64,000 bases of DNA from Verrucomicrobiia bacterium (lineage in GTDB: Bacteria > Verrucomicrobiota > Verrucomicrobiia > Limisphaerales > JADLHS01), in assembly GCA_036274115.1 (NCBI GenBank), contig DASUGI010000113.1, forward strand, positions 14,211 through 78,210, given 5' to 3'. The notes under the pieces were generated by a model, which was given only the letters and a program-made list of their open reading frames with translations, had not been told where the DNA came from and did not search any database. Below, piece after piece: positions 41,652 through 47,368 of this stretch. Within the stretch, counting starts at the first letter, position 1. Every line of letters begins with the position of its first letter. Position numbers and translations under genes: made by a program.

Positions 41652-41810
41652 GACGCCAAACTTCCGTGCCTCGTAACTTGCCGCACACACCACACCACGT
41701 TGTGTTGGAGGCGACCCGACGATGACGGGCTTCCCTTTCAACGCCGGATTGTCCCGCTGCTCCACGGACGCGTAAAACGCATCCATGTCGAGATGAAAGA
41801 TGACGTGAAA
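41652..41810 (-). pseudogene. dinB: N-terminal remnant (~52 codons) of DNA polymerase IV
   Basis: [47 protein letters not shown], then homology ends; no start codon at the expected position. Confidence 0.85.
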
Positions 41811-43617: not shown

Positions 43618-43641
43618 CGGAGCGCCGATCTCCTGATCGGC
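43618..43641. repeat. REP family B singlet downstream of RAYT
   Basis: CGGAGCGCCGATCTCCTGATCGGC. Confidence 0.85.
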
Positions 43642-43647
43642 GCGCTT

Positions 43648-44415
43648 CTATCTCCGCTTCAAGTCGGTCGCTTTGCCTGTCGGCAGAATCAATCGCCGAT
43701 ATTCATCCCGAAACCTTGCGCCGTTGAATGGCCATTCCGCAGCCGCCCGGCAAAGCTTTGCCTTCACAGAATTGTTCTCGATGTAACGAATCGCTTTCTT
43801 CTCCTGTTCCTCGTTGCGCATGAACGTATCCCAATACTCGCGCTGCCAAAACGATTGGAGCGCCGATCTCCCGATCGGCTCGTTGCCAGCAGCGTCGAGC
43901 CGATCCGGAGATCAGCGCTCCGCCCGCAGTTGCGCCAACGCTTTAGGGGCAACAAATTTCTTCCATGCCACCACCATTTTCCAAAGCGGCATCTCCCACA
44001 CATGCACCAGCACATGCACGTGATTGGGCATCACACACCACGCCAGCAGTTCGTAACGCTCGTTGTGAAAGAATAGCAATGCTTCCTCGCAAAGCATGGC
44101 GATGTCTGGCCGTCGCAACCAACACTCGCCGACACCGCGATCCAGATACGCTTCCAGTTTCGTTCGCTTCTCTCGCACGTCTTCGATGGCAAGCAGATGT
44201 TCCCATTCACTGCGCCGCGAGCTGGGCATCGAATCCTCCAGCCGGAAGGTAACGAACTGCACGAGGCCGGGGAAATCACAATGCGGCAGATAACCGCGCT
44301 CGTGCCAGCCCAGGAAACCGAGCCGACGTTCGGCGTCGGTGAGTTTGCGACCGGACCAGTGATTTTTGTCGGCCACGAGTTCGCGAAGGTATTCTCGTTT
44401 GGGCTTCGCGTGCAT
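43648..44415 (-). mobile_element. REP-associated tyrosine transposase (RAYT, HUH/Y1) interrupted by in-frame TGA at 43912-43914
   Basis: RGYLPH, FVTFRL, HUH motif MPNHVH; same frame continues after the TGA with FWQREYWD..RYIENNSVKA..EWPF to TAG at 43648-43650; flanked by REPs. Confidence 0.9.
43857..43921. repeat. REP family B doublet inside the RAYT coding sequence
   Basis: 26-bp inverted arms (24/26 match) 43857-43882 and 43896-43921. Confidence 0.9.
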
Positions 44416-44419
44416 AATT

Positions 44420-44495
44420 CGGAGCGCCGATCTCCCGATCGGCTCGTCTCAAAATTCAAATGCCCCAACTTGCCGATCAGGAGATCGGCGCTCCG
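44420..44495. repeat. REP family B doublet between RAYT start and acnA stop
   Basis: CGGAGCGCCGATCTCCCGATCGGC...GCCGATCAGGAGATCGGCGCTCCG. Confidence 0.9.
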
Positions 44496-44497
44496 CT

Positions 44498-47368
44498 TTA
44501 CGCCTTCGCGATCAACTGCCGCAGCACATACGGCAGAATTCCCCCATGCTGGTAGTAATCAATCTCAATGGGAGTATCGATGCGGCAACGGACGCTGACC
44601 TCTTCCACACTGCCGTCTTTGCGGGTGATCTTGAGCGTTAAATCCTGTTGCGGTTTCAGATTTTCATCGAGGCCGACGACGTCGTAAGTCTCCGAGCCGT
44701 CGAGCTTCAGGGTTTGCGCGGTCGTGCCTTCCTTGAATTGCAACGGCAGCACCCCCATGCCGACGAGGTTGCTGCGATGGATGCGCTCGAAACTTTGCGC
44801 AACGACGACCTTCACGCCCAACAGGTTCGTGCCTTTCGCGGCCCAGTCACGCGATGAACCCGTGCCGTATTCCTGTCCAGCGATGACGATGAGCGGAATG
44901 CCCGCCTGCTGATATTTGATGGAAGCGTCGTAGATGCTCAGTTTTTCGGGACTGGCCGAACTGGAGTTCGGCGCTCCGAAGTAAAGCGTGTTGCCGCCTT
45001 CCTCGCCGCCAAGCATCAGATTCTTGATGCGAACGTTGGCAAACGTGCCGCGCGTCATGACGCGGTCATTACCGCGACGCGAGCCGTAGCTGTTGAAGTC
45101 GGCGGGCAGAACGCCATTCTCCAGAAGGAATTTCCCGGCCGGCGAACTTTTCTTGATTGAACCAGCGGGTGAGATGTGATCGGTCGTGACGCTGTCGCCA
45201 AAAATGCCGAGTGCCCGCGCGCCGGTGATCGGTTTGATGCCCCGCGGTTCGAGCGAAAAATTCTCGAAGAACGGCGGTTCCTGAATGTAGGTGGAATTGC
45301 GATCCCACTCATACACGTTACCCGTGCTGGCGGGGATTTCGTTCCACTTCGGATTCTGCGCGGCAAAATCCTTGTAGAGCTTGCGGAAGACTTCGGGCTT
45401 GAGCGCGGATTCCATTGCGTCGCGAATTTCCTGCAAGGTCGGCCAGATGTCGGCGAGGTAAACCGGCTTGCCATCCTGGTCGTTGCCGATGGGTTCGCAA
45501 CTCATGTCAATGTCCACGCGGCCCGCGAGCGCAAACGCGACGACGAGCGGCGGCGACATCAGAAAGTTCGCTTTGATGTTCTGATGCACGCGCGCTTCAA
45601 AGTTGCGGTTACCCGACAACACCGCAGCAGCCACGAGATCATTGTGCACTACGGCTTCTTCAATGGCCGGATGCAGCGGACCGGAATTACCGATGCACGT
45701 AGTGCACCCGTAGCCGACGAGATTAAACCGCAGCTTGTTGAGATACTTTTGCAGGTTCGTCTTCTTGAGGTAATCGCTGACGACGCGCGATCCCGGAGCG
45801 AGCGACGCCTTCACCGTCGGGGCCACCTTGAGTCCGCGTTCGACCGCCTTCTTCGCCAGCAAACCCGCCGCGAGCATGACGCTGGGGTTCGAGGTGTTGG
45901 TGCAACTGGTGATGGCCGCGATGAGCACTGAGCCGTTGCGGACCTTGCCTTTGATCGCGGGCGCATGGGCCGAAATTGGATCAGGCGTAGGACGGTTTTG
46001 AGCCATTTCGCGCTCGGTAGTCGGATTCGTGCCGGCGGCAACGGCTTGTGCAAGCGAAACGGGATCCTGATTGCCCCCGCCCGGTTGATAATCTCCATCC
46101 GAAGTCACCGCGATGGTCGTGGCAAAGGCGCTACGTTGCTTGCCGAAACCATTTTCAGTAACCGGCCGTTGGAACGCGCTGAAGAATTCGCGGCGCAGGT
46201 TCGGGAGTTCGATTCGATCCTGTGGACGCTTCGGACCCGCGACGCTGGGTTTGACCGTGCCGAGATCGAGCTCGACCACTTGCGAGTAGTCGACGTCGCC
46301 AAGATTCGGAATGCCCCACAGGCCCTGGGCGCGATAGTAATTCTCGTAGAGCTTGCAGTCGCCGTTGGTGCGTCCCGTAGCGCGGAGATAATTCACGCAC
46401 TCTACATCGATCGGGAAAAGGCCCATCGTCGCACCGTATTCCGGCGCCATGTTGGCAATGGTCGCGCGATCCACGACCGGCAACGCGACGGCGCCCGGAC
46501 CAAAGAACTCAACAAACTTGCCCACGACTTTCGTCTTGCGCATGAGCTGCGTAACCGTGAGCGCGAGGTCAGTCGCAGTCACACCTTCCTCGAGCGCGCC
46601 GGTGAGATGCACGCCAACAACGTCCGGCGTGAGGAAGTAAACCGGTTGCCCGAGCATGCCCGCTTCCGCTTCGATGCCGCCAACACCCCAGCCGACGATG
46701 CCGAGGCCGTTGATCATCGTGGTGTGGGAATCCGTGCCGACGAGCGTGTCGGGATAGTAAACGCCATTCGCACTGAGGACGCCTTTGGCGAGGTATTCGA
46801 GATTCACCTGGTGCACGATGCCGATGCCCGGCGGGACGACCTTGAACGTGTCAAACGCCTGCATGCCCCACTTGAGGAATTGGTAGCGCTCACGGTTCCG
46901 CGTGAACTCCAGATCCAGATTGCGCTCCATCGAGTCGCTGCCGCCCGAGAAATCCACCTGCACTGAGTGATCGACCACGAGGTCCACCGGCACGAGCGGC
47001 TCAATGATCTTGGGATTCTTGCCGAGTCGGGCGACAGCGCTGCGCATGGCGGCGAGGTCCACCAACAGAGGCACGCCGGTGAAGTCCTGCAACACGATGC
47101 GCGCCACGACGAACGGGATTTCTTCCGTGCGCGCTTCAGTCGGTTTCCAATTAGCGAGCGCACGCACGGCAGCTTCACTCACGCGTTTGCCATCGCAGTT
47201 GCGCAGGACGGATTCCAGCACGAGGCGGATGGAGACGGGGAGTTTGGAGATGGGGCCGACGCCGGCCTTCTCCAGCGCGGGCAGCGAGTAAAAGCCGCCT
47301 TCCTTGCCATTGCCGAGGTCAAAGTTTCTGAGAGTCTGCGAATCAAACGGGTTCTGTGCGTTGCTCAT
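44498..47368 (-). CDS. acnA: Aconitate hydratase A
   Basis: [68 protein letters not shown]. Confidence 0.97.
44955..44978. repeat. REP family B-like singlet inside acnA, in frame
   Basis: Minus strand CGGAGCGCCGAACTCCAGTTCGGC versus consensus CGGAGCGCCGATCTCCNGATCGGC, with a compensatory stem change. Confidence 0.7.

Follow-up and report, generated by a model that had tools for sequence, protein, structure and literature searches.

An RAYT gene of a Verrucomicrobiia bacterium that carries its own REP family as an in-frame doublet, with a probably recent nonsense mutation

In the window analysed here, a stretch of 64,000 nucleotides from a Verrucomicrobiia bacterium (GenBank assembly GCA_036274115.1, contig DASUGI010000113.1, positions 14,211 to 78,210 of the forward strand), we identified an RAYT gene which, like about 100 of its relatives, carries in frame a doublet of the REP family that flanks it, and which was likely inactivated in recent time by an ordinary CGA>TGA transition and not by a switch. 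We put the probability of this reading at about 0.8. The stop codon is ordinary and REPs within RAYT genes are known; it is the pattern found across the clade that could matter.

Translation of the minus strand gave a frame of 255 codons (43648..44415), which ends naturally at the TAG 43648..43650 and contains a single internal stop, the TGA at 43912..43914. The protein around the stop reads ...LRAER*SPDRLDAAGNEPIGRSALQSFWQREYWD...RYIENNS.... The 5' part of the gene (43912..44415, minus strand), consisting of 167 codons and the premature TGA, holds an N-terminal extension, the HUH motif and helix alphaC, and the 3' part (43648..43911, minus strand, same frame) holds the remainder of the REP-coded loop, the WQ motif, the helix of the catalytic Tyr and the TAG. 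Both halves match NF047646, the model of REP-associated tyrosine transposases, the 5' part with an E value of 4e-6 and the 3' part with 5e-12 at model positions 101-145; the match of the 5' part to Pfam Y1_Tnp (E 0.0018) was below the cut-off. The protein read through the stop scored 73.2 bits against NF047646 and the intact orthologue P0002 scored 81.3 bits, the cut-off being 80 bits. The best solved relative, by sequence and by fold, is TnpA-REP of E. coli (PDB 4ER8). On these grounds the identification of the gene as an RAYT, made in a preliminary description from the DNA letters, was correct.

The motifs could be placed on the 4ER8 structure. The HUH motif of the RAYT/TnpA-REP class (TnpA-Y1 class 2) is present as NHVH at residues 131-134, and His132-Val133-His134 (44014..44022, minus strand) align to the HUH strand of 4ER8. 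The codon of the catalytic Tyr211 (43783..43785, minus strand) aligns to the YIYINP helix of 4ER8, in which Y115 is the catalytic Tyr of the E. coli enzyme (PMC3479197), and is untranslated owing to the stop. The stop separates the HUH motif from Tyr211, as had been proposed, and also from the WQ motif. The Y---NP signature is present in the orthologue of the related genome G028 and absent from the window gene, which reads YIENNS beyond the stop, with Ser216 (43768..43770, minus strand) at the place of the conserved Pro (Pro in 119 and Ala in 1 of 120 homologues). The setting of the gene is also that of an RAYT: its flanking REPs recur throughout the genome, for the most part as inverted doublets, it is the one gene of this type in this assembly (G000), and the RAYT gene of G028 occupies the same chromosomal place, next to the aconitase gene. 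By its sequence, the locus is an RAYT-type (TnpA-REP) gene; REP-dependent ssDNA cleavage and strand transfer would be the activity of the intact enzyme.

The REP unit is a 23-nt repeat with a GGAG foot and a 7-bp hairpin. Forty copies of the 23-nt pattern were found in the genome at one mismatch or fewer and none in a reversed control; therefore the repeat is far above chance. Upstream of the gene there is a doublet (44421..44494) with arms at 44421-44443 (plus strand) and 44472-44494 (minus strand), and downstream, 6 nt past the stop codon, a single REP (43619..43641, plus strand); the preliminary description was thus right that REPs flank the gene on both sides but wrong in taking the downstream flank for a doublet. 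The inner doublet (43857-43921) is of the same family and in frame, as both the translation and the arm positions confirmed. Its antisense arm (43857..43879, plus strand) codes for the last part of the loop that precedes the WQ strand, and its sense arm (43899..43921, minus strand) holds the C>T change that makes the TGA, the only internal stop of the gene; the remaining four local arms that had been listed do read CGA there. The claim that a G-U pair keeps the hairpin intact holds for the mRNA strand, on which the doublet folds with the U of the stop codon paired (-56.5 kcal/mol); the opposite strand has a mismatch at that point. A sixth local copy (44955..44977, minus strand) lies in frame within the aconitase gene and is also found in G028; it codes for the peptide GAPNSSSA, and this REP is identical in G028 despite the divergence of the surrounding genes (L001).

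The inner arms are identical to the flanking arms of the locus at 21-23 of 23 bases, which would fit a recent insertion of the doublet by the window RAYT into its own gene, briefly tolerated and then followed by inactivation, as the preliminary description had supposed. This explanation is extremely improbable, since the same insert is found in the same frame and at the same site in 115 of the best 120 homologue matches (68-84% identity) and in the intact orthologue of G028, from which the window gene is separated by a dS of about 1.5. Of the 118 homologues that could be parsed (2 could not), 115 have 53-62 residues between HUH and W, all 115 with the same REP-coded peptide before WQ that it had been suggested to look for, and the other 3 have 35; in insert-free relatives the distance is 39. 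Nearly all members of the clade have the doublet in one and the same frame and at one place, the loop that leads from helix alphaC to the WQ strand. The G028 gene adjoins the same aconitase gene and has the same REP type, and outside the insert its comparison with the window gene gave a dN/dS of 0.06, which implies that selection acted for most of the branch of the window gene.

For comparison at the DNA level, 220 loci were collected, 218 of which could be parsed; after 47 near-duplicates had been merged at a loose threshold, by which distinct alleles may have been merged too, 171 distinct loci from genomes and metagenomes remained. The insert clade accounts for 105 of them and insert-free genes for 65; the last, L022, was left out. 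Presence of the insert required 4-5 changes on a tree of 167 rows. The length of the inner doublet, taken modulo 3, is conserved in 95 of 97 loci; of the 103 flanking doublets 63 conform, and 18 would contain a stop if read in the corresponding frame. Of 100 inner antisense arms, 6 have the variant that changes Leu to Phe; among flanking arms oriented likewise it occurs in 45 of 168, kin not being independent in this count. The frame retention and the avoidance of the Phe variant show that selection has long acted on the insert as coding sequence, with the frame kept, no stops and the Leu codon favoured. At the same time it remains a good hairpin. The original insertion may have been made by an RAYT, but long ago, with purifying selection since.

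Some relatives depart from the common form of the insert. In L051, L116, L117, L195, L209 and L211 a third REP arm is present in frame in the same loop, giving HUH-to-W distances of 216-240 nt, which points to a further insertion or duplication at the site. The excluded L022 is a distant RAYT (39% identity) whose loop also holds an in-frame insert, of different appearance, which suggests that this loop is a recurrent target. In GTC-type loci (such as L007, L084 and L142) the inner antisense arm has a double change which keeps the hairpin pair and alters two residues; it was seen in 23 of 100 inner and 8 of 309 flanking arms. In L114 the frame is open and the catalytic Tyr is replaced by Asn.

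To return to the TGA, hairpin repeats are hard to assemble and the depth is low (2-10), so that an assembly or consensus error in an intact gene, the outcome which would have overturned the preliminary description, had to be considered. Its likelihood is negligible, because the site is bridged, without any difference, by contigs from two samples of a different study. The stop site is covered with 0 differences by contigs of X1, possibly the source run, of X2 (43765-44071) and of X3 (43857-43999), X3 being another sample of the study of X2, and that study differs from the possible source. X4, from a third study, has the same allele only 8 letters from the end of its contig and was not counted as bridging. 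No CGA allele was seen among the variant rows listed for these four runs out of 22, which were compared as contigs, a form that hides rare alleles.

Among the 100 inner sense arms, the codon at the position of the stop is CGG in 56, CGA in 41, CAG in 2 and TGA in 1, that of the window gene; in the flanking arms TGA occurs in 2 of 309. The corresponding column of the 120 homologues (codon 168) has Arg in 113, Gln in 3, Trp in 1 and a gap in 3. Of the 105 insert-clade genes 8 have a stop or frameshift, and of the 65 insert-free genes 5, both sets having been retrieved by best score, which favours intact genes; most lesions are transitions in Trp codons or small deletions, and only the window gene has a stop inside the REP. 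These counts give no sign that the internal REP raises the rate of breakage. Nor is the REP position a hotspot of C>T, which shows no excess among the genome matches (3 of 119) or in the inner arms as compared with the flanks. Nonsense and frameshift pseudogenes of RAYTs are reported as common in passages of Nunvar et al. 2013 (PMC3686654), which describe them together with declining REPs, a likeness to the present case. The stop is thus likely an ordinary CGA>TGA decay that has left a recent pseudogene, not a programmed switch.

That the gene was silenced by one C>T, as had been stated, is correct as to the stop and overstated as to its being the sole lesion. Besides Ser216, Gly232 replaces a Ser found in 117 of 120 homologues, the SS motif, Ser-Ser, having become Asn231-Gly232, and all these changes arose on the branch of the window genome itself. 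General decay of the gene was considered and rejected: 3 of 132 conserved columns are changed in the window gene, the median of intact homologues being 4, and dN/dS is low. Decay beyond the stop therefore rests on these two sites.

The preliminary description had further proposed a reversible switch, in which the stop would be reverted by gene conversion from other REPs, or by excision of the doublet, and so turn REP proliferation on and off. About 40 copies with CGA in the genome could serve as donors, inner REPs do track the flanking type across the clade, and for the RAYTs of Neisseria a reversible switch based on slippage in homopolymers has been put forward (Bertels and Rainey, 10.1101/2021.07.10.451892); there, in the passages available, an inactivated RAYT likewise goes with REPIN decay and reversible gain and loss is suggested. 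The lesions in Neisseria, however, recur in homopolymer tracts, whereas that of the window gene is one point mutation without recurrence in 100 loci; a lesion recurring in independent lineages, as a phase-variable gene should have, was thus not found. In addition, TGA shows no excess in the inner arms over the flanks, the allele is identical in all 4 runs compared as contigs, and the homology that donors could offer is only about 23-27 nt. Exact removal of the 65-nt doublet shifts the frame, and the deletions seen in nature are irreversible, being a frameshift in L068, a collapsed arm in L210 and the loss of half of alphaC in P0074, P0080 and P0102. Even after reversion, Ser216 and Asn231-Gly232 would persist. 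We consequently regard a switch, by either route, as improbable.

The TGA lies inside a stable mRNA hairpin, and readthrough, as selenocysteine or stimulated by the hairpin, could in principle give a full-length protein. We consider this highly improbable: Arg predominates in the column of the homologues and Cys occurs in none of them, TGA is the commonest stop of the genome (1311 of 2295 long frames) with RF2 present, and neither a selB match over the cut-off nor a tRNA with a TCA anticodon was found in the assembly, which is 87% complete. Restart at the internal ATG 43821 was rejected as probably not viable; the predicted product keeps the Tyr helix and loses the WQ strand, and TnpA-REP of E. 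coli is a monomer (PMC3479197).

The single transition in an Arg codon supplied by the REP truncates the protein before the guide-binding strand and the catalytic Tyr, with Pro216 and the SS motif changed as well; no active enzyme would then be made from the window locus, and the REP family would presumably no longer be renewed here. Exact copies of the window REP type number 70 in G028, which has the intact gene, 24 in the window genome, 12 in G018 and 11 in G026, the last two genomes having nothing that matches the G028 protein at more than 54% identity, and 0-2 in the other 20 of the 24 genomes of the genus. Dependence of the REPs on the enzyme would be expected to produce such a gradient (PMC3686654; 10.1101/2021.07.10.451892). 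Exact matches make up 32 of 40 REPs here and 80 of 94 in G028, a barely lower proportion in the window genome, which fits a recent loss of the enzyme. Seven RAYT matches are present in the assembly and no other one is flanked by the window REP family; with 417 contigs and 87% completeness, both the lower copy number and the absence of a second cognate RAYT are weak evidence.

Across the clade, the 10-nt core of the hairpin falls into five types, and the type of the inner REP, that of the flanking REPs and the sequence of helix alphaC vary together, in conflict with the tree obtained from the remainder of the gene. Since arms and flanks could not be typed at every locus, the tests used 100, 99, 80 or 72 loci. 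In 99 loci the inner core differed on average by 1.05 bases from its own flanks, by 2.23 from the flanks of the nearest relative and by 3.60 from all others; of 19 tip-disjoint pairs whose flanks differ, 16 have inner arms that go with their own flanks, 2 show the opposite and 1 is a tie; and the inner type equals the upstream flank type in 67 of 72 typed loci. Cassette and flanks are at variance in L032, L040, L152, L153 and L187. When alphaC and the insert are removed from the gene, the types lie scattered on the resulting tree, with 35 changes compared with 40.9 for shuffled labels. Trees holding the AGC or the ATC type together were rejected (p-AU 1.4e-5 and 3.2e-5), these types having been named after a first tree had been seen. 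An exchange involving the inner REP, part of the switch that had been proposed, is thus supported on evolutionary time scales and fails as a switch.

The part of the protein that follows the REP type could be narrowed down. In 80 loci, the excess mutual information with the upstream-flank type averaged 0.66 bits for residues 153-165 and 0.35 bits for the REP-coded loop, and 0.02 and 0.04 bits for the N-terminal and C-terminal domains, kin not being independent. The peaks at residues 153, 156 and 160 would share one face of a helix. Helix alphaC (residues 149-165; 43922..43971, minus strand), whose sequence tracks the REP type in the clade, corresponds at the level of the region to the hairpin-binding helix of the E. 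coli enzyme, although the residue register between the two is ambiguous, with gaps on both sides. AlphaC of E. coli TnpA-REP enters the hairpin's minor groove, with base contacts by R78 and K82 (PMC3479197), and in passages of Corneloup et al. 2021 (PMC8266576) it is speculated that the equivalent helix reads the cognate REPs in other groups. Sister pairs of differing type have DNA identities of 72-96% on both sides, of 42-55% in alphaC and of 56-75% in the doublet, and the alphaC of these sisters matches that of same-type genes on other backbones at 77-92%. L141 and L153 share an identical upstream flank and have different cassettes. Strictly independent pairs on starred branches are too few, 4-6 per type, with a median p of 0.06-0.25 and a direction that is almost never reversed. 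Relative to G028, the window locus itself shows no swap.

These patterns suggest, tentatively and at somewhat less than even odds in our judgement, that in this clade of Verrucomicrobia RAYTs the hairpin-reading alphaC and the in-frame cognate doublet form an exchangeable cassette of about 120-150 bp. The enzyme's choice of hairpin would be determined by alphaC, which would travel with the adjacent cognate doublet when RAYT genes recombine with one another. A new cassette recombined into an RAYT backbone would bring a new specificity and the first cognate REP at once, and the flanking REPs, then those genome-wide, would follow. General homogenisation of backbones combined with selection matching the helix to the REP would give a similar picture, and some of the metagenome contigs could be chimeric. 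Our literature searches, several of which were swamped and whose coverage left subscription journals outside, returned no description of an exchange of such a cassette or of helix and REP together.

The nearest parallel is TnpA-REP subclass 2.4 (RAYT group 4), in which, as in the window clade, REPs have been reported to be inserted in frame at a point between HuH and Y (Quentin et al. 2018, PMC6006769). According to passages of that paper, however, the variable insert of subclass 2.4 lies between beta3 and alphaC and is called peripheral, whereas that of the window clade comes after alphaC and before beta4, a region linked in the same source to REP recognition. The feet differ too: the REPs of subclass 2.4 have a GT[AG]G foot or a double foot, and the arms of the window clade have GGAG or GGAA after a variable base. 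The order of elements was taken from a model of P0002, which has a strand at 134-141, a helix at 146-166, an unstructured stretch at 167-193 and a strand at 194-203, so that the insert follows the helix; with a mean pLDDT of 58 (72-82 in the helix region, 40-60 after the insert), the model was used for this order only. The term Verrucomicrobia does not occur in the supplement text of PMC6006769, whose table uses genome codes. The window clade therefore resembles subclass 2.4 in its working, while membership, judged by the place of the insert and the foot, is not established.

TnpA-REP of E. coli, although the best match by sequence and fold, differs from the window gene in having no internal REP, a shorter N-terminus and a GTAG foot (Messing et al. 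2012, PMC3479197). In-frame single REPs and dimers have been described in unrelated genes of Opitutus terrae and Rickettsia (Di Nocera et al. 2013, PMC3733652). In passages of that paper, intragenic REPs are frequent in O. terrae, itself a verrucomicrobium, which agrees with the REP in the aconitase gene here, but the repeats described are of the GTAG or CGTC kind, unlike the window REPs. Closely related RAYTs flanked by different classes of REPs are the orthoswitch of PMC3686654, passages of which call its mechanism unknown and, in contrast to what we see in the window clade, do not tie it to a segment of the protein or to an internal REP.

How an RAYT changes its REP partner was thus left open in 2013, and in passages of the 2021 work the hairpin-reading residues outside E. 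coli are still speculative. If the cassette is real, it would provide a mechanism for the orthoswitch, name the residues of specificity and explain why the internal doublet is retained. The five REP types, each with a distinct alphaC on shared backbones, offer natural pairs for swap experiments, and confirmation would yield a small code by which a single-strand DNA nuclease could be retargeted.

A few further observations were made around the locus and in the genome. Two RAYT-like loci, L217 (contig C376 of G000) and L219 (C195 of G000), have no flanking copy of the window REP family or of a second REP family by the strict pattern. This second family of G000, with a GCGG...CCGC stem and 135 loose matches, accompanies several similar insert-free RAYT pieces at contig ends (L214-L216 and L220, on C26 at two places, C97 and C181), a number of copies above the norm for RAYTs, or else a collapsed repeat. 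At 41653-41810 on the minus strand (L001 1307-1464) the window has a short 5' piece of what we take, from its motif, to be dinB, which ends abruptly. In G028 the matching dinB-like piece begins directly beside the downstream REP of the RAYT gene, indicating that the neighbourhood was rearranged next to the REP.
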